From the IMG/VR virus record IMGVR_UViG_3300045988_113752, positions 1 through 24,654 of that record: DNA of 24,654 bases; one strand, given 5' to 3'. Positions 6,628 through 19,766 of the stretch are shown piece after piece. Within the stretch, counting starts at the first letter, position 1; each line of letters begins with the position of its first letter. The notes beneath the pieces were generated by a model that had not been told where the DNA came from, ran no database searches, and saw only the letters and a list, made by a program, of their open reading frames with translations. Source of the stretch: a virus (taxonomy: Duplodnaviria; Heunggongvirae; Uroviricota; Caudoviricetes). The translations under genes were made by a program, and so were the position numbers.

Positions 6628-9344
6628 TGCCAGTCGTACCAACAGTATCCGGACGCCAGGTGCAAAGTCGTGGTGTGCAAACCGGTGGTTTTCAGACCTT
6701 CGATGTTCCTCAAGCAGGTCAGGTGCTGGCGAATGTCGCAGATCAGTATGCGGTGGCATATGGTGAAGCCAGGCAGAAAGCGAATGTTGCATTGTCTCAG
6801 GATGCCATCCTTCAGCTTAATCAGCGCAGCAATGAACGTCTTTATAACCCTCAAACCGGTTTTTATGCACAACAAGGCAAAAATGCGATTGGTAAGGGGC
6901 AAGAGTACATATCTGGATTTGATCAGGATGTGGAAGAAATAGCTGCTTCATTGACTGATGAAGCAGCAAGAAATATGTTTTTGCAACAAGCCAGAACACA
7001 GAAAATTCAGTTCAGTACTGGAGTTCTCAGACATGAGATAGGGCAGACAAATGCCTATGAAGATGAGCAATATCAGGCAACGAGAAAATTATGGATACAA
7101 AATGAAGCGGATGCCTGGAATGACCCGCAAACTGCCACTTTAGCCAGAAATTCCAGAATGGTAGCCATTGCCAGATATGGAGCTGCCAGGGGATGGTCAC
7201 AAGAACGCATTCTGGAAGAAATAGAAAGTGATGATCGCCGTGCCACAGAAATGCGGGCGAAGAATTATGCCGCTGCCAATCCAGAAGGATGGCTAAATGG
7301 TCTGTTTCAGAAAAATGATTCTGGAGGCATGGACATGCGTGCCATACGCCTTGTTGAATCAGGTGATCGACATTTTAATCCTGATGGTAGTCTTCTTGAA
7401 GGACCGATAACATCTTCTGGAGAGAGAGCCCAGGGGAAATACCAGTTAATGCCGGGCACAGGGAAAGAACTGGCGGCCAAGCGTGGCGTTAAATACAACC
7501 CTACGGACGAACAACAGCATGAAATGCTCGCCAGTGACTATGTAAATCAACTGTATGGTAAGTACGGCTCCGAAATATTGACCGGAGCAGCATATAACTG
7601 GGGGATGGGTAACGTGGATAAACTGATCGCCAAAGTCGGTGATCCACGTAAAGGTGAAATATCAGAAGAAGAATTTATCCGAAATCTTCCATCAGAAACA
7701 CAAGGGTGGCTTTCCCGATATAGAAAAAATAAAACTGGAATGGATCCGCTGACTATTTATCAAATAGATAACCTTGCTAATAGTCAGATAGAAAAGCAAA
7801 GGAAGTTAATATTAGAACAGCTTGAGCCAGCTATTAATAACACCATGGCCCAGCTATATAACGGTGAGGTTCCAGATTATATACCGGCTCAGGAGACTAT
7901 CATCAGGGGGTATGGAAAAAATGCAGATAAAATAATCAATCAACTGGATATAGCGATTGATAACGCGAGAATATTCCAGGCAATTCAGTATTTACCTCCT
8001 TCTCAGCAGCAAGAAGAAATGCAGAAAGTGAAGCCTGAGGTTAACGATCCTCACTATGCGTTAAAACTCGATGCTTACGGAAAATTGTCTGCATTGCTTC
8101 AGCGATCAAATGAAGCAATTCAGGCGCAACGTGATTCACGCAGATTCAATGAGGCGCTGACAATAGGTGAAAAATTAGACCCAAGCAACAAATCAATGCA
8201 GAAAGCTGCTGATTACACAGAAATGGCGCAGAACTTTCGTATTAATGATGCCTCCACTCATGATGGGGTTGTTCGGCTTGTGGCTCAGACTGGCATCATG
8301 CCTTCGCAGGTCATCACGCAGCTTTCAGCAGTATCCAGATCCAGCAATCAGGAAGTGGTTAAAAATGCAGCGAATTTGTTTAGTCGGTTATATGAAACAG
8401 ACAATGCATCTATTGGAAATATGCCGAAGGATATGCAGGGTTTTTATCTGACTGTTAAGCAACTAACAGATTCTGGCATGTCTGCTGATGCGGCTATCGA
8501 GCAGGCGCAGAACCTGACGTACAACCAGACCGATGCTCTTAAAGCTCAATTGGCATCAACGCAGAGTTCAAAAGAGTACAAAAATAATCGCAGCAAGGCG
8601 ATGAATTCTGCTGTCAGCAATATGGCGCAGTGGTTCCGTTGGGATCCGTCTGCGGATGACCAGACGCCGGAAGCAGCTAGATTCCGTAATGACTATCAGA
8701 CGCTGTATGACATTAACTACCGCGTTGCTGGTGGTAACGCTGACGTAGCGAAGCAAATGACCAACCAGCAGATAGCCCGCACCTGGAGTATCAGCGAGGT
8801 TAACGGAGAAGCGCAGTTTATGAAATATGCACCGGAGGCGCTTTATCAATATGGGCCGTCAGGCTGGCAGGCGGCGCAGTGGAAAGCTGAAAAAGAACGG
8901 CTGATGTACGGTGAGCGCAAAGAGATTATAACAACCAGTCCGACGTTGCTTGGGATCACGTCAGGTAATGCTCCTGTAGTTGAGACAAAAACCCCTGAGA
9001 GTCGTATTAATGGAGAATTATTCATAACCCCTGACGTGTTAACACCTCGTAATGGTGATTACGCCATTATGGTAAGAACTAAGGATGAAAATGGCATCGA
9101 TCGGGTCCAGCCGTTTTATAACAAACATGGGCGTCCTATGCGTTGGGAACCATCACTAGAAGATTGGGAACCTTATAAGAAAATGCAGCAGGAACGGGAG
9201 CAGTACGAGCAGGAAGAAATTATGCGTGGACAGGCTATACGAAACTTCAAAGACAAGCATCGCGCTCTGGATGAGCAGTATCAGCGCCTGCATAACGAAC
9301 GTATGGACAAATTTAAAGATTACTTTTCGTGGGGATCTAAATAA
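6627..9344 (+). CDS. Internal virion/ejection protein with lytic transglycosylase (SLT-like) domain
   Basis: The track ORF begins at 6552, but ATG 6627 overlaps the upstream stop and has ggagg upstream. The protein carries ESG...GKYQLMPGTG...AAYNWGMGNV, matching the SLT catalytic-Glu / GLMQ / AYNAG motif pattern. Confidence 0.7.
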   Translation: MPVVPTVSGRQVQSRGVQTGGFQTFDVPQAGQVLANVADQYAVAYGEARQKANVALSQDAILQLNQRSNERLYNPQTGFYAQQGKNAIGKGQEYISGFDQDVEEIAASLTDEAARNMFLQQARTQKIQFSTGVLRHEIGQTNAYEDEQYQATRKLWIQNEADAWNDPQTATLARNSRMVAIARYGAARGWSQERILEEIESDDRRATEMRAKNYAAANPEGWLNGLFQKNDSGGMDMRAIRLVESGDRHFNPDGSLLEGPITSSGERAQGKYQLMPGTGKELAAKRGVKYNPTDEQQHEMLASDYVNQLYGKYGSEILTGAAYNWGMGNVDKLIAKVGDPRKGEISEEEFIRNLPSETQGWLSRYRKNKTGMDPLTIYQIDNLANSQIEKQRKLILEQLEPAINNTMAQLYNGEVPDYIPAQETIIRGYGKNADKIINQLDIAIDNARIFQAIQYLPPSQQQEEMQKVKPEVNDPHYALKLDAYGKLSALLQRSNEAIQAQRDSRRFNEALTIGEKLDPSNKSMQKAADYTEMAQNFRINDASTHDGVVRLVAQTGIMPSQVITQLSAVSRSSNQEVVKNAANLFSRLYETDNASIGNMPKDMQGFYLTVKQLTDSGMSADAAIEQAQNLTYNQTDALKAQLASTQSSKEYKNNRSKAMNSAVSNMAQWFRWDPSADDQTPEAARFRNDYQTLYDINYRVAGGNADVAKQMTNQQIARTWSISEVNGEAQFMKYAPEALYQYGPSGWQAAQWKAEKERLMYGERKEIITTSPTLLGITSGNAPVVETKTPESRINGELFITPDVLTPRNGDYAIMVRTKDENGIDRVQPFYNKHGRPMRWEPSLEDWEPYKKMQQEREQYEQEEIMRGQAIRNFKDKHRALDEQYQRLHNERMDKFKDYFSWGSK

Positions 9345-12300
9345 TGCCAGTTTATGCACAAGCTGAAGATCTTAATAACGGACTGATCCCGTCAGGTAAT
9401 GTTTTGCCGGAACAAACTGGGTTTGATGTTGCCCTTCCGGAAGGGGCTAATCCTGAGCCATTGCCACCGGAGCCTTCCGTATGGGGGGCTGCAATGCGAC
9501 AGAACAATATTCTGGCTGGTTTTTTCCGACCAGCCAGACAGTTTGAACCGGTCGAAGGTTATAACCCATATGCTGATAAAAATGAGTTGCACGGTTATGA
9601 ATACTGGGGGGCGAAATTTGCAGATTCCCGATCGCCAGAGGAAACGGCGTGGATTAAGCAGCAGATAGATGATGAAAATGAAGACAGACGTTTATTGTCT
9701 GATGCTGGCGTAGTTGGAACCCTTGCCAGTATTGCTGCGGGAATGGATCCGGTTACTGTTGCGTCAATGTTTATCCCCGGTGCTCAAGGAGGGGCACTGG
9801 CGCGTATTGGCTCACAGATTGCGATTGGTGCAGCCGGTACAGCATTAAGCGAGGTTGTGCTGAATAATCAGCAAATAACACGCTCATGGGGTGAAAGTGC
9901 CGCTCACATTGCAGCGGGTGCGATGATGAGCGGCGTGTTTGCCAGTGCTGGTGTTGCGCTTTCGCCATCCGTCCGGGCTGCAGCCACGCGTGAGGTTGCT
10001 GATGCTCTTGATAATATGAGCATTACATCAGCGACTGACAGGGCTGCCGCTTCGCTTTCTGATGGTGGTAGTGTTGGTGCTATGAAAATTGATACAGCGA
10101 CTCTGGATGATTTAACCCCTGTTTCCGGTGGGGTGGTTGGAAAGGCTGCATGGAAAGCAGGGAGCTATCTTACTCCTTTGACAAGGTTAATGGAGTCTCC
10201 GTCCAAGACAGTGCGAAAAACAACGCTGGAGTTAGCCGAAAATAATTTCACCCTTAAAGGAAATGAAAGGGGGATTGAAACACCGGTAGCTGTAGAAACC
10301 CGTACACGTGGATGGCAGCGTGAAGAAGCTGCTGTTGTTGTCGGAAATAAACAGGCATACGCAAAGTATAAAGCTGATGGTGGTGACATGAGTTTTGATT
10401 CATTTCGTCAGCAGGTTGGGAATGCTATGCGAAGCGGTGATGTGCATGCTAATCCTGTTGTTCAGGAAACGGCGCAGGCGATGCGAACTGTATTAAATCG
10501 GGTGAAGGTTGAAATGCAAAAGCTTGGTTTATTGCCGCCAGATGAAGAACTGAAAGCATTAGGCCAGGCAAGCTATTTCCCACGTATATATAAAGTTGGA
10601 AAAATAATCAGTGAACGCGATAAATTTCGACGTATTTTGGTTGACTGGTGGTCGAGAGGCAATAAAACACTGGATCCTGAGGATGCTGAAATTGCAGCGG
10701 ATATCGTAATTAATAAAATTACTGGTGCTAAGGTTCCACAGGATTTTGTCAGCGTATTTTCTGTAAAAGCCGCAGGTAGTACGAAAGAAAGAACATTAAA
10801 TGTGCCTGATAGTCTTATCAGGGATTATCTCGAAAGTGATGTGAATTACGTTCTACAACGTCATATCCGTGAAGCGGCAGCAGAAATTGAGTTGACGAGA
10901 ACATTTGGCAAACGAACTATGACAGAGCGTCTGCAATTAATTGAGGACGAATATGACAGTCTGTTACGGGAAGTGCCTGAAAAAATAAAGGCAAAATATG
11001 ACGAAAGTGTGGCAAATCTGAAAGCACGTTATGAGAGCAATGGTGAAGTTGTTCCTCAGGGTAAACTCGATTCATTAATGCGAAAGTACGAAAAGGAATT
11101 ACGGAAAGAACAGTCCAGACTTTCAAAATCAAGAGCAAATGATCTCAGAGACATAACAGCATTACGCGATCGTCTTGTTGGTACATATGGTATGCCTGAT
11201 GACCCGTCTTCGTTTTTTGTTCGTGCTGGCGCTTTTCTGCGGGATGTGAACTTCACGACAAAACTCGGTGGAATGACAGTATCAGCTATTCCAGATCTGG
11301 CCAGAGGGGTTATGGTTAATGGTTTCCGTAACTCCATGAAAGGCTATGCTTCTCAGATATCCCAATCACCGGCATTTAAGGCCAGCAAAGAAGAGATGTT
11401 GAAGATGGGGATTGGATTGGAAACTGTACTACATTCACGTTCTCGTGCAATTGGTGATCTTGTTGACAGTTCTTCCAGGACAACAGCAGTCGAAGCAGGA
11501 ATGGAGCGAATTACTGATGCCTTCGGCAAGCTGACACTCATGGATCGATTTAATGACATAAACAAATCCATGAACGGAATGCTCACGTCAGACGGTATTT
11601 TGTCTGGTGCGTTTTCTGCACGTCGCATGGCAAAACTCGGTATCAACGACAATATGGCTGCGCGTATTCGCAGTGAGTTCGAGAAACATGGTGAGGTAAT
11701 TGATGGATGGCACATTGGTAACTTTGATAAATGGGACGATCAGTACGTTGCCGGAGTATTCCAGTCAGCGGTTCTGAAAGACGTTAATAACACTATCATT
11801 ACCCCCGGTATTGGTGACACACCTTTATGGGCGAGTACTCCAATGGGGCGAACGATATTTCAGTTTAAATCATTCACAACGGCTTCATACAACCGTGCGC
11901 TACTTGGTGGGTTACAGGAAGGAACTGCGCAATTTTATTATGGCACTGCATTTCAGATTGCTCTTGGCTCACTGGTCTATGCGCTTAAAGAAGCATCGAA
12001 AGGGAAAAATGTTGACTGGTCACCAGAGAAGCTGGTGCTTGAGGGTATAGATAGATCCGGTATTCTTGGGCCATTGATGGAATATAACAATATGGCTGAA
12101 AAGGCTACTGGTGGTGCTGTTGGGCTGGGGGCTTTATTTGGCACTGGCACACAGTCTAGGTATGCCAGTCGTGGATTCGTAGGATCTCTATTCGGACCGT
12201 CATTTGGTCTTGCGGATAGCATCATTGATGTGACCGCAGGAGTGTTGAATGGTGATGCCGGTGATCGTATTGTGCATAATGTCCGAACCCTGATACCCGG

Positions 12301-12358
12301 CAATAACCTGTTCTGGATTGCGCCACTAATAAACCAGGTGGATCCGGTGATGCGGTGA
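9344..12358 (+). CDS. Large internal virion/ejection protein (hypothetical)
   Basis: 1004-aa ORF coupled (TAATG) to the upstream gene. Last gene of the structural operon before the AT-rich accessory region. Confidence 0.6.
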   Translation: MPVYAQAEDLNNGLIPSGNVLPEQTGFDVALPEGANPEPLPPEPSVWGAAMRQNNILAGFFRPARQFEPVEGYNPYADKNELHGYEYWGAKFADSRSPEETAWIKQQIDDENEDRRLLSDAGVVGTLASIAAGMDPVTVASMFIPGAQGGALARIGSQIAIGAAGTALSEVVLNNQQITRSWGESAAHIAAGAMMSGVFASAGVALSPSVRAAATREVADALDNMSITSATDRAAASLSDGGSVGAMKIDTATLDDLTPVSGGVVGKAAWKAGSYLTPLTRLMESPSKTVRKTTLELAENNFTLKGNERGIETPVAVETRTRGWQREEAAVVVGNKQAYAKYKADGGDMSFDSFRQQVGNAMRSGDVHANPVVQETAQAMRTVLNRVKVEMQKLGLLPPDEELKALGQASYFPRIYKVGKIISERDKFRRILVDWWSRGNKTLDPEDAEIAADIVINKITGAKVPQDFVSVFSVKAAGSTKERTLNVPDSLIRDYLESDVNYVLQRHIREAAAEIELTRTFGKRTMTERLQLIEDEYDSLLREVPEKIKAKYDESVANLKARYESNGEVVPQGKLDSLMRKYEKELRKEQSRLSKSRANDLRDITALRDRLVGTYGMPDDPSSFFVRAGAFLRDVNFTTKLGGMTVSAIPDLARGVMVNGFRNSMKGYASQISQSPAFKASKEEMLKMGIGLETVLHSRSRAIGDLVDSSSRTTAVEAGMERITDAFGKLTLMDRFNDINKSMNGMLTSDGILSGAFSARRMAKLGINDNMAARIRSEFEKHGEVIDGWHIGNFDKWDDQYVAGVFQSAVLKDVNNTIITPGIGDTPLWASTPMGRTIFQFKSFTTASYNRALLGGLQEGTAQFYYGTAFQIALGSLVYALKEASKGKNVDWSPEKLVLEGIDRSGILGPLMEYNNMAEKATGGAVGLGALFGTGTQSRYASRGFVGSLFGPSFGLADSIIDVTAGVLNGDAGDRIVHNVRTLIPGNNLFWIAPLINQVDPVMR

Positions 12359-12369
12359 GTTAAACACCT

Positions 12370-12933
12370 TTAGCATGATTCAGGGGAAACCCCAATATTA
12401 AATATGAGTGTCTCCCCTGAATCAGCATAATAATGTAATATTATTGACTTACGTTGTTTTCTTGCTTCGTAGAATAAACGCTCTTGCGGCGATAATTTGT
12501 GAAAACTGCCGGATGCACAATATATGTTTTTTAACTTTTCGCGGGTTTCTTTTATTGTATCTTCTGATATGTATTTTAGGTATTTATCCGTATAGATGTT
12601 GCTACTATAAGAAATTAATGTTTTGCTGTTGTTGTGATGTATTGTATTTTTATCGTTGAAGTCTGTATTTTTATTTACTGTCATTAGGTTTTTAATGATT
12701 ACATGTAATACAATAGTCTCCCCATCATCAATTCCATATTTGATGTCATAGTCAGTATATTTATTTGTTATACCGCTTCCTGATAGCGGCACTATGTACT
12801 CTGAGAAAAATGAGTTTGCCGCGTGACTATCAAGAGCAATAGCAGTTTGTTTGTGGTAAAAATAAAACAATATTGAGAGAGTCAAAATAATAGCGACGCC
12901 TAATGCAACCTTTAATATAGATATGGTTTTCAA
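12370..12933 (-). CDS. AT-rich accessory gene: signal-anchored or secreted protein of unknown function (candidate superinfection-exclusion-type moron)
   Basis: The track ORF (12370..12981) starts at TTG with no RBS. An internal TTG at 12933 has a perfect AAGGAG 7 nt upstream and gives N-terminus MKTISILKVALGVAIILTLSILFYFY, a signal peptide or anchor. The region is strongly AT-rich compared with its flanks. Confidence 0.45.
   Translation of the reverse strand: MKTISILKVALGVAIILTLSILFYFYHKQTAIALDSHAANSFFSEYIVPLSGSGITNKYTDYDIKYGIDDGETIVLHVIIKNLMTVNKNTDFNDKNTIHHNNSKTLISYSSNIYTDKYLKYISEDTIKETREKLKNIYCASGSFHKLSPQERLFYEARKQRKSIILHYYADSGETLIFNIGVSPESC
12377..12423. other. 11-bp inverted repeat (gattcagggga ... 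tcccctgaatc) with 25-nt loop, at the junction of convergent genes
   Basis: Perfect inverted repeat read directly from the sequence. It overlaps the 3' end of the minus-strand ORF. Confidence 0.3.
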
Positions 12934-13023
12934 AATATCGCTCCTTGTTGTAACATACATCAGTAATGTGGCGTTTTTCAATTGTATTAAAGACGTGTAA
13001 TATGTACACGCCTTTTGCTCTTC

Positions 13024-13455
13024 CTATTCAGGTATTTCAATTCCAAAACCATCTGCATCCCATGAGTTTTCACAGATGATGTAACCTAGTTCATTGAGCT
13101 TATTAAATGTTTTTTCAAAGATGATCTGGTAATCATTATCTGCAAGTGATTCCAGTTCAAGGTCATTAAGGTTTATATAAAAACTTGTATGTCCAAGTGT
13201 TATTTTCTTATTAATTTCATTAAAGGTTCTTTTGAAAATAATATTTGATATTTCATGTCGTGCATTGTTTGCAATGATTTTTGCTTCATAAGCAGAAATT
13301 ACGTCATCTTCATGAATATCTTTCAGAAAACTGGTGTCAAGACGTTGTACTATTTCAGCGTTCATTGATCGCTTATTGGCTTTTGCAGAAATTTCTATTT
13401 TTTCTTTTACTTCGACGGGAAGTCTGATCCTTAGTTGTGGATCTTCTCTGCTCAT
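13024..13455 (-). CDS. Mnt-like ribbon-helix-helix repressor with ~100-aa C-terminal extension
   Basis: N-terminus MSREDPQLRIRLPVEVKEKIEISAKANKRSMNAEIVQRL resembles P22 Mnt/Arc RHH domains as I recall them. Transcribed divergently from the Arc-like gene. Start chosen at the ATG giving MSRED; the track ORF starts 10 codons upstream. Confidence 0.55.
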   Translation of the reverse strand: MSREDPQLRIRLPVEVKEKIEISAKANKRSMNAEIVQRLDTSFLKDIHEDDVISAYEAKIIANNARHEISNIIFKRTFNEINKKITLGHTSFYINLNDLELESLADNDYQIIFEKTFNKLNELGYIICENSWDADGFGIEIPE

Positions 13456-13575
13456 GTTCTTCACCAAATATTGAGTTACTTGCAATGATTGAAGTATGCC
13501 TCACCGTGTGCTTGACATCAATGACGCACGGTGTGACAATTATTTTGCCCCACGGTGGGGCTAAGGAGATATGAA
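13456..13575. promoter_or_regulatory. Divergent promoter/operator region between the Mnt-like and Arc-like genes
   Basis: TTGACA at 13512-13517 with a weak -10 (gacaat) 17 nt downstream on the plus strand. Inverted half-sites CACCGTG (13502-13508) and CACGGTG (13527-13533) flank the -35; a third CACGGTG lies at 13551-13557. Confidence 0.45.
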
Positions 13576-13743
13576 ATGCAAAAAGCAAAAGAGATGTGTC
13601 AACGACGAGTTCGTTTTCCGGACGATGTGAAGTTAGCTATTGAAAGAAATGGCGAAAAAGAATGCCGAAAGTTCAATACAGAGATTATCTATCAGCTGAG
13701 GAAAGTGTATGGACTCACTGGTGAGAAGAATAGCGTGGCATAA
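13576..13743 (+). CDS. Arc-like ribbon-helix-helix repressor
   Basis: 55 aa from ATG 13576, with taaggag 8 nt upstream. RVRFPDDVKLAIERNGEKECRKFNTEIIYQLRKVY resembles P22 Arc. Directly upstream of the antirepressor gene. Confidence 0.6.
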   Translation: MQKAKEMCQRRVRFPDDVKLAIERNGEKECRKFNTEIIYQLRKVYGLTGEKNSVA

Positions 13744-13814
13744 AACAGCGAAGCCCCACGGTGGCCAGACCGTCAGGGCTTCAGTATCGTAAAACTACGT
13801 ATAGGAATTAACGA
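13742..13814 (-). ncRNA. Candidate sar-like antisense RNA covering the antirepressor RBS/start
   Basis: Minus-strand promoter TTGATA-N17-TATACT (plus coordinates 13849-13844 and 13826-13821) fires antisense across the ant RBS (13802-13805) and ATG (13816). A strong hairpin (13750-13782) is followed on the minus strand by GCUGUUUUA. Predicted length is ~70 nt. Confidence 0.4.
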
Positions 13815-13815
13815 C

Positions 13816-14754
13816 ATGACGAGTATAGCAACAGCAGTATCTACTATCAACGTGCCATTCCACGGCGCAGAGCTTTATGTTGTCAATCACAACGGCGAAC
13901 CGTATACCCCAATGAAACCTATCGTTGAGGGAATGGGGCTAGACTGGAAATCTCAACATAAGAAGATTTCTCAACGCTTCTCGAAGGGTATGGTGGAAAT
14001 CACCATACCTTCTGCCGGTGGGGTGCAAGCCATGATTTGTATGGCTTTACGAAAATTGGCAGCTTGGTTGAACAGCATCAGCCCTAACAAAGTCCGCCCT
14101 GAAATCCGCGACAAGGTAATCCAGTATCAGGAAGAGTGTGACGATGTGCTCTACGAGTACTGGACTAAAGGCCATGTGGTTAACCCACGCAAAGCTAAAA
14201 AGGCGTTGCCGGGTAAAATAACAACTGAACAGCAGGAAGCCATTAAACAACTCGTCATGAGTCGCGGTCAGTCTCTGCCAAAAGAAAAACAGGCTAAGGC
14301 GATGATCACCATGTGGTCGTCACTGAAATCTCATTTTGGCTGTTCGTACAAAGAAATTGGTGAAGATCAATTTGCCGAAGCGTTGTCTCTTGTTGCTCGG
14401 GTTCCGCTTGAAGGGGAGTATCTCCCTGCTGGATCTGCATCAGAGAATGATGAAGTGGCAGTCAAGATGTTAGATGCGCTTCGTGAGGCAATTAAAACAC
14501 AGACAAAATGTTATGGTTATCCACTGAAGCCCGGCTACCGTAGCCTGATTCATTCGCCGTCTGGTGTTCTCGGCCTGACGGAGAACTCACTGCTGATGAA
14601 TCTGCTGAACCAGTTACAGGAAGACGGGCACGATGTATCGGGCGCGGCGGCGGAGCTGACCACCATGTTCTGCTACATCGTCGGTGTGAGCAAATGCCTG
14701 CGTGATATCCAGACGCACGCGGAATACATCAACGACAAGGCAGGGTTCTTCTGA
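13816..14754 (+). CDS. Antirepressor-like protein (Ant-type N-terminal region plus shared C-terminal domain)
   Basis: 312 aa immediately downstream of the Arc-like gene, in the immI-like arrangement. The C-terminal ~78 aa are identical to the C-terminus of the Bro-N protein at 16006..16698. Confidence 0.55.
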   Translation: MTSIATAVSTINVPFHGAELYVVNHNGEPYTPMKPIVEGMGLDWKSQHKKISQRFSKGMVEITIPSAGGVQAMICMALRKLAAWLNSISPNKVRPEIRDKVIQYQEECDDVLYEYWTKGHVVNPRKAKKALPGKITTEQQEAIKQLVMSRGQSLPKEKQAKAMITMWSSLKSHFGCSYKEIGEDQFAEALSLVARVPLEGEYLPAGSASENDEVAVKMLDALREAIKTQTKCYGYPLKPGYRSLIHSPSGVLGLTENSLLMNLLNQLQEDGHDVSGAAAELTTMFCYIVGVSKCLRDIQTHAEYINDKAGFF

Positions 14755-14774
14755 CAGAACGGCGGCACAGGGAC
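14521..14774. repeat. Inverted repeat, left copy (~253 bp, ~97% identical to 15988..16240 in reverse complement)
   Basis: Aligned by hand: about 6 substitutions, all synonymous in the coding part, plus a small indel just after the stop codon. It encodes the shared antirepressor C-terminal domain. Confidence 0.8.
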
Positions 14775-14804
14775 GTGCAAAACGAAACTAGCGTGACATG
14801 TCAC

Positions 14805-14829
14805 AGGCCGCTTTCGCGGCCTTGTTTTT
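14805..14829. terminator. Bidirectional intrinsic terminator (AGGCCGC-tttc-GCGGCCT then TGTTTTT)
   Basis: 7-bp GC-rich stem, TTTC loop and T-run on the plus strand after the ant stop. It sits between convergent genes and is preceded by the perfect palindrome GTGACATGTCAC (14793-14804). Confidence 0.5.
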
Positions 14830-14989
14830 AACGAATGCCACCGCCGCCAGGGCGGGAATCCGCAGAACGCCCACCGCAGCGGGAGCCGTCAGCGGCAGTA
14901 TCGCTGTCGTGCTGACAACGACCGGCAAAGGCCTGAGTTGAAGCTACCAGAGACAACAAAACGAACAGTGCAGCAAATGCTTTTTTCAT
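14828..14989 (-). CDS. Small secreted Cys-containing peptide (hypothetical)
   Basis: Internal ATG at 14989 gives MKKAFAALFVLLSLVASTQAFA, a classic signal peptide, followed by a ~31-aa Gly/Arg/Asp-rich mature part with 2 Cys. The track ORF extends to 15061. Confidence 0.4.
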   Translation of the reverse strand: MKKAFAALFVLLSLVASTQAFAGRCQHDSDTAADGSRCGGRSADSRPGGGGIR

Positions 14990-15082
14990 TGTGAAATTTC
15001 CATCTATAAGCCACCTCAATGTGGCGTCAATGAGTGTAGCACTGACTTTTGTTTCGTCCACAAAAAAGCCCGCAGCGCGGGC

Positions 15083-15631
15083 TTACTTTTCTTCAGGTTT
15101 GTTGTCTTCAGATTTCTTCTTGATGCTTGGTTTTTGTCTAAGAACGAAAATACCAGCCACTGCAACAACTGTACCGATCACTGTGCCAGCTAGAACTTCA
15201 TGACCTGTTAAACCTAATAATGTTGCACAAGCTACTGTAAAAATAGTTGCACTCAGGCCAAACCACTGCCCACGTTTATCTCTATTAATAGCCCCGTCAA
15301 GTGCCTTTTCCTCCATTTTCTGGCGGTGAGCAAACTCCTTCTCCGTCAGCTGGAAGATGCGTTCGGGGGCATCAGGTAAAATATCCTGATACCCGCGAAG
15401 CAGATAGGGGGGAGGAAGCGGACCCTGAAACGCATGGTGAGCGACAACTATCTCCTGAATTTCAGGGCGATCAAGAACTCTTGTGAAGGCATCTGGGTGT
15501 TGAATGATCTCGTTACTTAGCCCTTCCTCAACTTCCTCGAACTCAGTTTCTTCGTTATCACTTGGTTGCCCAATAGATTTTTGCATATTTGTCGAAGGAC
15601 ATTCCTTTAGCTTCTGGTTTTCCTCTTGCAT
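15083..15631 (-). CDS. Membrane protein with acidic N-terminus and two C-terminal TM helices (DUF2335-like by memory)
   Basis: 182-aa ORF with aggga upstream. Contains a PPPYLLRGYQDILPDAPERIF motif and two hydrophobic helices near the C-terminus. Its 5' end overlaps the upstream gene by 74 nt in another frame. Confidence 0.45.
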   Translation of the reverse strand: MQEENQKLKECPSTNMQKSIGQPSDNEETEFEEVEEGLSNEIIQHPDAFTRVLDRPEIQEIVVAHHAFQGPLPPPYLLRGYQDILPDAPERIFQLTEKEFAHRQKMEEKALDGAINRDKRGQWFGLSATIFTVACATLLGLTGHEVLAGTVIGTVVAVAGIFVLRQKPSIKKKSEDNKPEEK

Positions 15632-15884
15632 TTGAGTTTTTCCCTGTCACTATTGCCCATTTTCCGCCAGCAGGCGCTGCAATTTTTTTTCCGTTCTTTA
15701 CTATATATTCAGCATAAACACGATTTTCTGACCGTCTGAGATCGTCTCCGACCATATTCATGTCTCTTGATATAACTTTGACGACAGAGTCTCGGTTTAA
15801 AGCCTTGGCATAGTTGGAGCCAGGAACGATACCCAAAGGGGTGCCAGACTCTATAGCCAGCTCCTTGACATATCTTCTGCTCAT
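15558..15884 (-). CDS. Hypothetical protein (108 aa), basic
   Basis: The track ORF starts at TTG 15899; ATG at 15884 is preceded by GAGG at 5-nt spacing. No recognisable family. Confidence 0.4.
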   Translation of the reverse strand: MSRRYVKELAIESGTPLGIVPGSNYAKALNRDSVVKVISRDMNMVGDDLRRSENRVYAEYIVKNGKKIAAPAGGKWAIVTGKNSNARGKPEAKGMSFDKYAKIYWATK

Positions 15885-15987
15885 ATGAACCTCAACCAAT
15901 CGACTTTACCAATCGGGTAATTTTAAACATGAGTATAATGCTTTTAACTGCAACGAGTGTAAACAATTATTGATAATTGTAGGCACA

Positions 15988-16240
15988 TCCCTGTGCCGCC
16001 GCCCGTCAGAAGAACCCTGCTTTGTCGTTGATGTACTCCGCGTGCGTCTGGATATCACGCAGGCATTTGCTCACACCGACGATGTAGCAGAACATGGTGG
16101 TCAACTCCGCCGCCGCGCCCGATACGTCGTGCCCGTCTTCCTGTAACTGGTTTAGCAGATTCATCAGCAGTGAGTTCTCCGTCAGGCCGAGAACACCAGA
16201 CGGCGAATGAATCAGGCTGCGGTAGCCGGGCTTCAGTGGG
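15988..16240. repeat. Inverted repeat, right copy (partner of 14521..14774)
   Basis: Reverse complement matches the left copy at ~97%. It encodes the C-terminal 78 aa of the Bro-N antirepressor. Confidence 0.8.
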
Positions 16241-16698
16241 GCGCTGTAGGTTTTGTTCTCTACCTTCATTGCCTGCATCACTGCTGATGCTGTGGCGTTG
16301 GCTACCTGGTCGGCAACCATCTTTATGCGTTCTTCCTGCGGGAGCGAGTTTTTAATGTAACTTCCGGTGCGGCGGATCTGAGGAAGAACCTCACCTGTAA
16401 CCCATTCAAGAAATCTGAATGCTCTCGTTCCCTCAGTCATTGCCTCTTTGCAACGCAGAATAAGGATGTAGAGACCTGATTCTGAAACGATGGATAGTTC
16501 TTGTATTCCACCAGGGGTCTGTATTGAATACAGCCCCTTTTTGTTCCAGCCTTTTTTATCAAGTTTTCTCGCTTGTGTAACATCAATATTCAAAGCATTG
16601 CACACATCTTTGGTGACAAACCAAGGTTCTCCGTCAATCATGAACATACGGATCTGGCAGGATGACTCAAAGGAAAAGATGGAAGGTTTGGTATTCAT
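16006..16698 (-). CDS. Bro-N domain antirepressor with shared C-terminal domain
   Basis: Start chosen at ATG 16698 (AAGGTGA 5 nt upstream), giving MNTKPSIFSFESSCQIRMFMIDGEPWFVTKDVCNALNI, a Bro-N/antirepressor N-terminal signature. The C-terminus is identical to the Ant at 13816..14754. Confidence 0.65.
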   Translation of the reverse strand: MNTKPSIFSFESSCQIRMFMIDGEPWFVTKDVCNALNIDVTQARKLDKKGWNKKGLYSIQTPGGIQELSIVSESGLYILILRCKEAMTEGTRAFRFLEWVTGEVLPQIRRTGSYIKNSLPQEERIKMVADQVANATASAVMQAMKVENKTYSAPLKPGYRSLIHSPSGVLGLTENSLLMNLLNQLQEDGHDVSGAAAELTTMFCYIVGVSKCLRDIQTHAEYINDKAGFF

Positions 16699-17011
16699 AG
16701 CGATCACCTTTGTAGTTAGGTTAATCACCACCGCTGAGACCAATCAGATGGTGGTGAACTGTGCAGAGTTGGTCTTACCGGCTACAAAGGAACCCGGCGC
16801 ACCTTTCGGTGCCCCCACACAGCCCACCATAGAATAGGTGCGCTTTACACATAAAAAAACCGCTTATGCGGCATATGTGCCTCTGTAGTAATCCGGGAGA
16901 CCAATCCCGGCACTGGATTTTGCCAGTGCCCGATTACTATGGCACAAGAGGAGTGCAATGTAAATTTACCGAAAAGGTAAATATAAGCACTCCTATTGGT
17001 AATTTCAAAAC

Positions 17012-17269
17012 TTATCTGGTTTGTTTTCGTAATTGTTCGGCACAATAGTCGAGATGTGTTTGCAGATCCTGCATAGACATCTGTGAGCTGGTGACGTAGT
17101 TAATCAGTGCAGTCAGTTCGGCAAGTGGGCCATCGACATTAAATCCATCCTTATCGAGATCCCGGAGTAATTTCATCAAGTGCGATCCCTCCACCAGTGA
17201 CCTGACGCCTCCCGGCGTGTGAATCCTTTCGGTAAATCCCTCTTCCAGTGGATAGTGATACTGCTGCAT
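17012..17269 (-). CDS. Small protein homologous to the antirepressor C-terminal domain, LexA-box controlled
   Basis: 85 aa from the second ATG (17269), which has GGAG 9 nt upstream; the first ATG (17284) has no RBS. YPLEEGFTERIHTPGGVRSLVEGSHLMKLLRDLDKDGFNVDGPLAELTAL aligns with YPLKPGYRSLIHSPSGVLGLTENSLLMNLLNQLQEDGHDVSGAAAELTTM of both antirepressors. Confidence 0.6.
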   Translation of the reverse strand: MQQYHYPLEEGFTERIHTPGGVRSLVEGSHLMKLLRDLDKDGFNVDGPLAELTALINYVTSSQMSMQDLQTHLDYCAEQLRKQTR

Positions 17270-17289
17270 CTTAATCTTCTCCATGCAAT

Positions 17290-17465: not shown

Positions 17466-19766
17466 ATGACGGTCTCAACCGAAGTTGACCACAACGAATA
17501 CACAGGTAACGGCGTTACGACATCATTTCCGTATACCTTCCGTATTTTCAAAAAATCCGACCTGGTTGTTCAGGTGTCTGACCTTAACGGTAACGTTACA
17601 AAACTAGTGCTGGATGCTGGTTATACGGTAACAGGGGCGGGAACTTATAGTGGCGGTGCAGTGGTTCTTCCGTCGCCGCTTGCTGCTGGCTGGCGAATCA
17701 CGATAGAGCGTGTGCTTGATGTGGTGCAGGAGACTGATCTTCGCAATCAGGGAAAATTTTTCCCCGAAGTTCATGAGGATGCATTTGACTACCTGACGAT
17801 GCTGATCCAGCGATGTTTTGGGTGGTTCAGACGTGCATTGATGAAACCATCTTTGCTTGCAAAATATTACGATGCAAAGCAAAACAGAATATCTAACCTT
17901 GCCGATCCATCACTTGAGCAGGACGCTGTAAATAATCGCTCAATGCGTAATTATGTCGATGCTGCAATCGCCGGAGTTATTGGTGGTTTTGGTTGGTTTA
18001 TTCAGTATGGTTCTGGAGCAGTATACCGAACGTTCCAGGATAAGATGAGAGACACCGTTAGTGTTCGCGATTTTGGGGCAAAAGGCGATGGTATAACAGA
18101 TGATACATCTGCATTGATTCTGGCTGCAGAATATGCACGAGAATCATCCAGAACATTACGAGCGGAAGGTAATTTTATTATTACGGAGACATTAAATCTT
18201 CGTAATGTCAGCCTCGAAATGACCAATGCTGTTTTTACCATATCCCACTCAGGGATAGGGGTATTGCTTGGCGGGAATGCATCAAACCCTAACAACCCAA
18301 GACAAAACTTCGGAACGATTATCAGAAATTCTGGTATTTCATCTGAAACGACACCGGATATTCGTATTATCGGGGCAAAAGGGCAGCATATTAACATTGA
18401 GCGTTGCGACTACTTACAGTTATATGCAAACTCTGATGATTCAGTATATGAAACAGATTATTCTATAGCCTACTCAACCTTTAACCTGAAAAAGGTCGAT
18501 ACAATTCATTTTCTTGGTGTAGTTAGAGGTTGGATAAACGAAAACAAGTTTTACCTAAACAGGACAAATAATGTGATTATTGCTGATAATCCGTATTCAC
18601 ATAATCACAACAAGTTTTTTGGTGGAACGATGGAGAATACTGGGGTTATTGACATTCAGCGTGGTAATAATAATCATTTTTACGGACTCCGTTTTGAGCG
18701 CAGACCAGACAACCCAGATGACACACAAAGAATTAATTTTGGTAGTTATACGTGGAATAATTCTGTTCAGGCATCATGGCTTAGCTTTTCTGCATATACC
18801 AATGAACCATATAACCCAAACAATCTTGTAACTGTCACTGATAATGGTAATGGAAATGCTGTATATCATATTCAGGAAGAACTAACTAATGAAGTGTCGC
18901 TTTTTTCAGTGAGTGAGAAAACGCCATTTTTATCAAGCGTTAATATGGGAAGTTCAGATACACCTGATTATGTTACAGATGTAAAAAGTGTGCGAAATTT
19001 AATTCATCTTGTTAATGGTAGTTTTGCTATTGGACGTAACTTCAGGACAATTTGGGAATCAGGTGATATAAGCGTCAGGAATGGCGATGTGTTTGCATTT
19101 ACTTCTGATGTCAGCGCATTCCGCATAAGGGTTTATGGAATTGATGAGAATGGCAGTGTTATTACAAATGAGCCTGAAGGGATTGGTTTTCCAGGGGCTT
19201 CATGGGATGATGAAAACAGTCGTTTTACTACCCAGTCTAACATCGGTAATGCAAAGTTTAGGATAACCGACAAAGGAGGAGTAAAATCAATAAGGGTTGT
19301 CATTCTGTCGGGTGGTAATACATCTGGAATTACCTTCAAATATATCAGATTTACCGGAAGATATTATAAGGATAGTTCTGCGTATCCTCGAAGAAATATG
19401 GATGATCATAATATCCACAGGTCTGGTGCTGTGATGTTTAATTCATCACTTGATGTCAAAATGGAAAATATAGCATCAGGTGTTACCTGTTATGTAAAAG
19501 ATGCATCTGATGTTAAGGTTAATATATTAAGAAATAGATACGTTGTTAAATCGGTGTCCGGGAATACTATATATGTGCGTAACCAGGATGAAATTTCATA
19601 TTCTGGTCCTTATGATGACTTTAAGGTTGCATATACTAGCGGGGCAAAAAATATGATTTCTGATGTTTCAGGAATTTCATCTAATGCAATAAAGTTATCA
19701 GGTAGTGTTCCTTCTGAAATATCAGAAGGAAGCAATATTGATTTGATTAAAATATTAACGAAGTAG
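17466..19766 (+). CDS. Tailspike protein: gp17-like N-terminal anchor plus pectate-lyase-type beta-helix depolymerase domain
   Basis: 766 aa with GGAG RBS. The N-terminal ~150 aa follow the pattern of T7 gp17-type tail fibre N-termini. The central DFGAKGDGITDDTSAL is the hallmark of pectate-lyase-fold tailspikes. The C-terminal half is AT-rich. Confidence 0.8.
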   Translation: MTVSTEVDHNEYTGNGVTTSFPYTFRIFKKSDLVVQVSDLNGNVTKLVLDAGYTVTGAGTYSGGAVVLPSPLAAGWRITIERVLDVVQETDLRNQGKFFPEVHEDAFDYLTMLIQRCFGWFRRALMKPSLLAKYYDAKQNRISNLADPSLEQDAVNNRSMRNYVDAAIAGVIGGFGWFIQYGSGAVYRTFQDKMRDTVSVRDFGAKGDGITDDTSALILAAEYARESSRTLRAEGNFIITETLNLRNVSLEMTNAVFTISHSGIGVLLGGNASNPNNPRQNFGTIIRNSGISSETTPDIRIIGAKGQHINIERCDYLQLYANSDDSVYETDYSIAYSTFNLKKVDTIHFLGVVRGWINENKFYLNRTNNVIIADNPYSHNHNKFFGGTMENTGVIDIQRGNNNHFYGLRFERRPDNPDDTQRINFGSYTWNNSVQASWLSFSAYTNEPYNPNNLVTVTDNGNGNAVYHIQEELTNEVSLFSVSEKTPFLSSVNMGSSDTPDYVTDVKSVRNLIHLVNGSFAIGRNFRTIWESGDISVRNGDVFAFTSDVSAFRIRVYGIDENGSVITNEPEGIGFPGASWDDENSRFTTQSNIGNAKFRITDKGGVKSIRVVILSGGNTSGITFKYIRFTGRYYKDSSAYPRRNMDDHNIHRSGAVMFNSSLDVKMENIASGVTCYVKDASDVKVNILRNRYVVKSVSGNTIYVRNQDEISYSGPYDDFKVAYTSGAKNMISDVSGISSNAIKLSGSVPSEISEGSNIDLIKILTK

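Follow-up and report, generated by a model that had tools for sequence, protein, structure and literature searches.

We present comparative sequence evidence that a 24,654-nt stretch of viral DNA (IMG/VR record IMGVR_UViG_3300045988_113752, Caudoviricetes; hereafter the window) carries a new, unannotated copy of the already known sar family of small phage RNAs. The element lies on the minus strand across the translation start of an antirepressor gene, ant, and by its sequence and predicted structure is almost certainly a homolog of the sar RNA of phage P22. We further consider it highly likely that the element is a transcribed and functional part of a P22-type immI module composed of mnt, arc, sar, and ant (Table 1). 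An initial annotation of the region had seen the architecture of P22 sar in it, a reading with which the match to the Rfam sar family (RF00262), the alignment to P22, and the neighbouring Mnt, Arc, and Ant homologs all agree. The mechanism of P22 sar has been described (PMC7968456, PMC2629481), its RNA was seen by RNA-seq during infection (PMC13397905), and the P22 sar papers of Liao et al. 1987, Wu et al. 1987, and Schaefer & McClure 1997 are cited in PMC2629481.

Table 1 Features of the immI module and its predicted sar RNA (positions are those of the window)
Feature	Position	Strand	Remarks
mnt-like repressor gene, 143 aa, divergent	13024..13455	minus	Pfam Arc domain, E 1.1e-14
Pant-like promoter	13512-13540	plus	TTGACA-17-GACAAT, consensus scan
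Palindrome GCCCCACGGTGGGGC	13547-13561	plus	core CCACGGTGG common with P22 Mnt operator
arc-like gene, 55 aa	13576..13743	plus	predicted ribbon-helix-helix protein; P22 Arc likeness
U-run UUUU	13742..13745	minus	within GCUGUUUUAU 3' of hairpin; overlaps arc stop TAA 13741-13743
Predicted sar RNA, ~71-74 nt	13743..13815	minus	ends inferred from sequence
Stem-loop 2, predicted sar terminator hairpin	13749..13783	minus	9 outer pairs, G bulge, inner stem, 6-nt loop
Stem-loop 1	13786..13815	minus	GUCGUUA/UUACGAU, one U·U mismatch, 16-nt loop
ant translation start	13803..13818	plus	Shine-Dalgarno AGGA 13803-13806, 9-nt spacer, ATG 13816-13818
ant, antirepressor gene, 312 aa	13816..14754	plus	Pfam P22_AR_N, E 5.9e-45
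Psar TG-extended -10, TGC TATACT	13822..13830	minus	TATACT 13827-13822, TG 13830-13829; within ant codons 3-5
Psar -35 TTGATA	13850-13845	minus	5/6 consensus; over Ile-Asn codons of conserved Ant motif TINVPF

The host of the module is a TL-2011b-like E. coli prophage with phiV10-like structural genes and a P22-type immI insert. Over 84% of its length, the window aligns with Escherichia phage TL-2011b at 97.6% identity, and its structural genes are ~95% identical to those of phiV10, i.e., they are of the Uetakevirus type and not, as in P22, of the Lederbergvirus type. No mnt-arc-sar-ant block is present at the corresponding position of phiV10, and the P22-type immI module has moved into a phage with Uetakevirus-like structural genes. 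It is flanked by genes for a large virion protein (9344-12358) and a tail fibre (17466-19766), both on the plus strand, a location that makes read-through from the late operon into ant plausible. The 'ant moron' of P22-like phages occupies the same kind of place (PMC2629481).

Homologs of mnt, arc, and ant stand in the P22 order and are accompanied by a Pant-like promoter and an operator of the Mnt type. The encoded proteins have diverged from those of P22. Ant is 39% identical over 217 aa, aligned from residue 1, and the Mnt-like protein is 32% identical and, unlike its P22 counterpart, extended by 60 aa. For the arc-like protein, a stretch of 40 aa shows 33% identity to P22 Arc (pairwise E 4e-5), and the gene is labelled 'Arc-like repressor' in the TL-2011b record; as a Pfam search with the 55-aa protein gave no match, the arc assignment is the weaker one. 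The palindrome downstream of the Pant-like promoter and the P22 Mnt operator AGGTCCACGGTGGACCT both contain the core CCACGGTGG, at nearly equal distance from the respective -10 element.

The predicted sar RNA (13815-13743) is antisense to the arc-ant spacer, covers the ant ribosome-binding site, and ends at the arc stop codon. We place its 5' end at G13815 because this base lies 7 nt past the -10 element, as in P22; the predicted start is the base directly in front of the ant ATG. For the 3' end, a position inside the U-run is inferred. The candidate promoter, Psar, is located in the 5' end of ant and is convergent with Pant. Its two hexamers, which match the consensus at 10 of 12 positions in a consensus scan, are separated by a 17-nt spacer, and the promoter spans ant codons 3-12 and is aimed back across the ATG and the Shine-Dalgarno sequence. 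A near-consensus minus-strand promoter of the form TTGATA-17-TATACT, pointing over the ant start codon and Shine-Dalgarno sequence, had been proposed in the initial annotation, and both its motif and its placement are confirmed by our coordinates. The elements also fall within the span 13742-13849 given there, except that its right end has to be moved by one base, since the -35 hexamer reaches 13850. Taken by itself, the Psar promoter match is within chance expectation: two matches of this quality were found in 1.8 kb of sequence vs 2.7 expected.

Two stem-loops are predicted in the RNA, and both show covariation among homologs (see below). The loop of the first holds the anti-Shine-Dalgarno sequence UCCU (13806-13803), the complement of the ant AGGA. 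The second is a predicted factor-independent terminator with a 5-bp inner stem (ACGGU/ACCGU), which on the plus strand of the DNA reads GAAGCCC (13750-13756) and GGGCTTC (13776-13782) enclosing ACGGT/ACCGT. On the plus strand the hairpin is followed by AGTATCGTAAAAC (as RNA AGUAUCGUAAAAC) and the U-run is absent. It had been claimed earlier that this hairpin precedes a U-run on the minus strand and that, lacking one on the plus strand, it would not terminate plus-strand transcription; the hairpin, the U-run, and the plus-side sequence are all present as described, and the argument from this strand asymmetry holds. The distance of ~70 nt at which the hairpin was said to follow the promoter, on the other hand, fits the end of the RNA and not the beginning of the hairpin, which starts ~32 nt past the predicted transcription start and ends at about nucleotide 67. 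A T-run is found at the same offset after the hairpin in most homologs. A simple terminator scan of the region did not call the sar hairpin, because its stem is bulged and the search pattern allows no bulge; for this reason, and because the terminator of P22 is arranged likewise, we do not count the miss against a terminator function. The U-run begins 3-4 nt past the stem, and the working terminator of P22 is laid out alike.

Membership of the element in the sar family was assessed with two covariance models. The whole-window Rfam scan at gathering thresholds returned three matches, one of which places sar RF00262 on the minus strand at 13814..13747 (E 2.9e-6, full-length model 1-68), with a score of 44.8 bits that exceeds the gathering score of 43 bits by only 1.8 bits. 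Our own model (R1), which was built from eight sequences with the window and its close relatives left out, was run with filters off and identified 13815..13741 on the minus strand with 49.7 bits (E 2.4e-9) as the single significant site in the 24.6-kb window, where the next best match had an E value of 0.3. The complete element is therefore far beyond chance. The two models differ markedly in sensitivity: across the same 20 diverse loci, the Rfam gathering score retrieves sar in only three (P22, CUS-3, and locus L129), whereas model R1 retrieves it in all 20, which indicates that the sar family is wider than the current Rfam threshold shows.

Direct comparison with the P22 reference record (sar 15021..15090 on the minus strand, promoter 15097..15125, ant coding sequence from 15091, arc end at 15022) reveals a shared organization. 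In both phages, the RNA is antisense to the spacer between arc and ant and to the ribosome-binding site of ant, its 3' end overlaps the stop codon of arc, and mnt, arc, and ant are its neighbours. The TG-extended -10 element TTGCTATACT, with TATACT in ant codons 3-4, and the motif TCATG are invariant between the two loci, the last base of the -10 element lies 6 nt away from the ATG of ant, and the predicted start adjoins this codon. The two-hairpin layout is likewise common to both, and the outer terminator stem (GAAGCCCTGAC/TGGGGCTTC) is the same in sequence. In contrast, the sequences of stem 1 and of its loop differ, with compensatory changes, and the inner terminator stem, here ACGGU/ACCGU with a 6-nt loop, is CUGU/GCAG with a 4-nt loop in P22. 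The -35 element of the window, TTGATA, is closer to consensus than the GTGTTA of P22, and the U-run is longer. The P22 RNA is reportedly 68-69 nt long.

Among other P22-like phages, CUS-3 shares with the window 91-96% of the block formed by sar and the ant 5' end and scores 84.6 bits with the Rfam sar model. Unlike the window, it lacks an arc gene upstream, and its inner terminator stem is of the P22 type. For epsilon34, a Sar RNA gene has been predicted (PMC2629481).

It might be argued that the element, while descended from sar, is an idle relic in phiV10/TL-2011b-type prophages, its promoter silent or Ant no longer under its control. The Rfam score is borderline, and stem 1 is mismatched. 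The single-sequence fold of the RNA (-24.1 kcal/mol, z = -2.63 vs shuffled sequences) is only moderately unusual and is weaker than that of P22 sar (-29.5 kcal/mol; z of -2.6 vs -5.3). In addition, the module resides in a foreign phage backbone, given that phiV10 is without it. However, ant is intact with 312 aa, the -35 element is nearer to consensus than that of P22, and compensatory changes keep both stems in the relatives. Several E. coli chromosomes, moreover, carry the region 13400-14000 with 100% identity, and of 5426 complete genomes, 201 contain some part of it. The identity and spread of the sar-ant block also speak against decay. Many of the genome matches begin at 13742 or 13750, i.e., at the sar 3' end, and sar therefore travels with the 5' portion of ant as one block beside differing upstream genes; an example is CUS-3, with sar and ant and without arc. 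We regard the loss of sar function in this lineage as improbable.

The conservation of the element was followed in 149 loci, which were collected as homologs of the Ant N-terminus in viral contigs and in bacteria, each species being represented by one genome. The sar-ant 5' region was found by nhmmer in 90 of these, with 48 distinct sequences. Model R1, applied to 100 sources, gave 53 matches, nearly all of them immediately upstream of the ant start. Sar-like matches extend from phages of the Escherichia/Salmonella type and Erwinia, Mixta, Mangrovibacter, Izhakiella, Klebsiella, and Raoultella to Yersinia, Rosenbergiella, Proteus, Providencia, Morganella, Photorhabdus, and Xenorhabdus. In many genera of the Enterobacterales, strongly covarying sar-like elements stand beside ant homologs, and the Rfam threshold recovers few of these elements.

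Base pairing was counted in 52 distinct homologs, with Escherichia, Salmonella, Erwinia, Mixta, Klebsiella, Raoultella, Yersinia, Proteus, and Xenorhabdus among their sources, and compared to 500 shuffles and to controls with slid partners. In this alignment, which was fitted to the model structure so that pair counts are biased upward, 95.9% of the cells were paired vs 79.9% in the shuffles and 29-50% with slid partners, and the terminator stem alone reached 98.5%. Changes on both sides of a pair were seen in 16 of 20 pairs (all seven of stem 1 and nine of 13 in the terminator), and none of the 500 shuffles attained any of the five covariation measures. RNAalifold on a plain MAFFT alignment predicted the terminator stem with seven compensatory pairs and did not recover stem 1. 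We attribute this loss to differences in loop length, which shift the register of the MAFFT alignment and which the covariance model had solved.

As helices are common to both strands of a cis-antisense pair, compensatory changes do not by themselves tell which strand is folded. The hairpins could accordingly act in the plus-strand arc-ant mRNA, as a processing site, a stabiliser, or a translational structure, and the Psar-like site could be a by-product of conserved Ant codons. The ant leader can indeed form the complementary hairpins. The 1997 work of Schaefer and McClure is said to describe a target hairpin in the P22 ant mRNA. Wobble pairs, which we counted for this reason, separate the two strands: the minus-strand pairs include 165 G·U cells vs 7 A·C cells, and the same pairs read as plus strand are only 80.2% paired vs 95.9%, which shows that preservation concerns the fold of the minus strand. 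The U-run, too, is on the minus strand only.

The promoter sequences point in the same direction, with one reservation. TTGATA, or its variants ending in T or G, is found at 17-nt spacing in nearly all of the 48 sequence variants, but since this hexamer overlies the conserved TINVPF motif of Ant, its conservation is inseparable from protein constraint and would fit a promoter-like site that is a by-product of the codons. The TG-extended -10 element is different in this respect. The pattern TGnTAnnnT was present in all 42 variants scanned of the 48, and in the remaining variants likewise by alignment, although the Ant residues 3-4 that are encoded beneath it vary between Ser-Ile, Ser-Leu, Asn-Leu, and Ile-Leu. 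A -10 element that stays constant while the encoded residues change favours selection on the promoter and not on the protein. Taken together, a function of the hairpins in the plus-strand mRNA in place of a minus-strand sar RNA seems very improbable to us.

A further proposal, which is compatible with sar function, concerns the DNA of the terminator. The operator core CCACGGTGG occurs twice in the window (0.13 expected), once in the palindrome (13550-13558) and once in the sar terminator (13756-13764), and the terminator copy agrees with the palindrome at 12 of 15 positions. In the TL-2011b-type lineage, the terminator might therefore double as a secondary, weaker operator for the Mnt-like repressor. 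If this were true, the repressor could occupy the spacer between arc and ant and there block read-through into ant or alter the termination of sar. However, the closest relatives (L078 group) read CAACGGTGG at this site, as do Erwinia and Rosenbergiella loci that have the same inner-stem allele, and other terminator alleles are found in L121 and L005, two loci that have this operator type. The single base by which the motif is completed also re-forms a U·G pair of the hairpin, and this suffices to explain its presence. Because the motif is neither kept in the closest relatives nor tracks the operator type, we judge a dual role of the terminator DNA to be highly unlikely.

Regulation of Ant by the window's sar RNA could proceed analogous to the model established for P22. 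Briefly, RNA polymerase would start at Psar, at about G13815, transcribe leftward over the ant ribosome-binding site, and stop at the hairpin and U-run on the arc stop codon, which would yield a two-hairpin RNA of ~73 nt. Loop 1 would present the anti-Shine-Dalgarno sequence UCCU, as suggested by the P22 literature, and the RNA, whose complementarity to the ant mRNA is complete by construction, would pair with the arc-ant intercistronic region of any plus-strand transcript, be it initiated at Pant or the product of late-operon read-through. By masking the ant Shine-Dalgarno sequence, this pairing would block translation of Ant and thereby limit antirepressor synthesis. Given the position of the module, sar may also silence read-through from the late operon into ant. 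In P22, Psar is reportedly stimulated by transcription from Pant. What is known of how sar works is left unchanged by the copy described here.

The practical value of the finding lies in annotation. The sar RNA is annotated neither in the TL-2011b record nor in the RefSeq E. coli record that we inspected, and a search of the literature for RF00262 and TL-2011b retrieved nothing on the RNA of the window. In the inspected RefSeq record, ant is begun at a GTG codon at 13852, 36 nt downstream of the ATG, a wrong start codon that hides the true ant start as well as the promoter embedded in the gene.

Control of an antirepressor by a small phage RNA is also known from the C4 antisense RNA (RF01695) of P1 and P7, which acts in icd-ant control, likewise blocks antirepressor translation, and belongs to a region also named 'immI'. 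C4 differs from sar in that its sequence and fold are unrelated, it is processed from the transcript of its own target, and it acts at upstream complementary sites with no convergent promoter within the target gene. An assignment of the sar element to C4 was rejected, as RF01695 matches 16747-16834 and not 13742-13849. The window thus also contains a copy of C4, 3 kb away from the sar element.

Rfam matches to the C4 antisense RNA and to isrK are located in the window immediately upstream of the Bro-N antirepressor gene. This arrangement, together with the sar element beside ant, places two distinct RNA-controlled antirepressor modules no more than 3 kb apart. Judged by sequence, the two modules are of the P22 sar type and the P1/P7 C4 type, each predicted to control an antirepressor by RNA. 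phiV10, in contrast, carries only the Bro-N module. Relative to phiV10 (L154, 19345-20230), the window (compared over 12370-16000) contains about 3.7 kb of additional sequence between the virion structural and Bro-N genes. This insert comprises a 203-aa ORF, the mnt-like and arc-like genes, sar and ant, together with a small ORF, the gene of a DUF2335 membrane protein and an ORF of 113 aa. The Escherichia phage TL-2011b differs in having a YafO-family toxin gene at the position of the DUF2335 gene.

The two antirepressor genes are also connected by a 270-nt inverted repeat with 92% complementarity, which encodes the near-identical C-terminal ~75-90 residues of Ant and the Bro-N antirepressor and whose arms enclose a 1.2-kb segment; an additional 19-nt inverted pair lies close by. 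The longer repeat could permit inversion of this segment, or it could be the recombination joint at which the immI block entered. Separately, a 90-aa ORF is similar to the C-terminal domain shared by Ant and the Bro-N antirepressor.

Around the Pant-like promoter, the palindrome GCCCCACGGTGGGGC is located 14 nt past the -10 hexamer and has the core CCACGGTGG in common with the P22 Mnt operator. This core occurs twice in the window (0.13 occurrences expected), the second time within the sar terminator, where it is not kept in the closest relatives compared. Two further sequences, CACCGTGTG and CACGGTGTG, may be operator half-sites recognised by the Arc-like or the Mnt-like protein; their GACGCACGGTGTGAC motif was found again at the equivalent position in Mixta, Raoultella and other loci. 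The Mnt-like repressor itself comprises 143 aa as compared to 83 aa for P22 Mnt, and its additional ~60 C-terminal residues are without a Pfam match.

Coordinates of features in the window and in compared loci (L-numbers)
Feature	Position	Strand	Remark
Mnt-like repressor	13024-13455	minus	
CACCGTGTG	13503-13511		upstream of Pant hexamers
CACGGTGTG	13528-13536		overlapping Pant hexamers
Palindrome GCCCCACGGTGGGGC	13547-13561		
Second CCACGGTGG	13756-13764		
270-nt inverted repeat	14486-14755 / 16005-16274		
19-nt inverted pair	14760-14778 / 15983-16001		
Bro-N antirepressor ORF	16006-16743	minus	
C4 antisense RNA	16747-16834	minus	Rfam, 78.6 bits
isrK	16853-16929	minus	Rfam, 74.7 bits
90-aa ORF	17012-17284	minus	
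Distant sar-like match	L027:1345-1416		
Distant sar-like match	L034:1302-1371		
Distant sar-like match	L031:1656-1730		
Distant sar-like match	L030:1659-1717		
CRISPR-DR4 repeat match	L007:946-973		43.3 bits

Sar is absent from the annotation of every public record inspected (TL-2011b, RefSeq). Moreover, the RefSeq record starts ant at GTG 13852 in place of ATG 13816, and the Mnt-like gene of the TL-2011b record begins at an internal Met (13365), so that its ribbon-helix-helix domain is lost (affected region, 13365-13455).

At its gathering score, the Rfam sar model detected three of 20 diverse loci. The covariance model built here identified sar-like elements 5' of ant in all 20, which span several Enterobacterales families; the loci concerned are L004-L034, L085, L120, L141 and L142. 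Sar-like matches of 34-36 bits were present 0.8-1.1 kb upstream of ant in Xenorhabdus and Morganella loci. In both Xenorhabdus loci L027 and L034 the distant match is a second copy, besides the one adjoining ant, and such second copies may reflect tandem antirepressor modules. An Erwinia sp. contig contains a CRISPR-DR4 repeat match, situated upstream of its ant homolog at a distance of about 1.5 kb.
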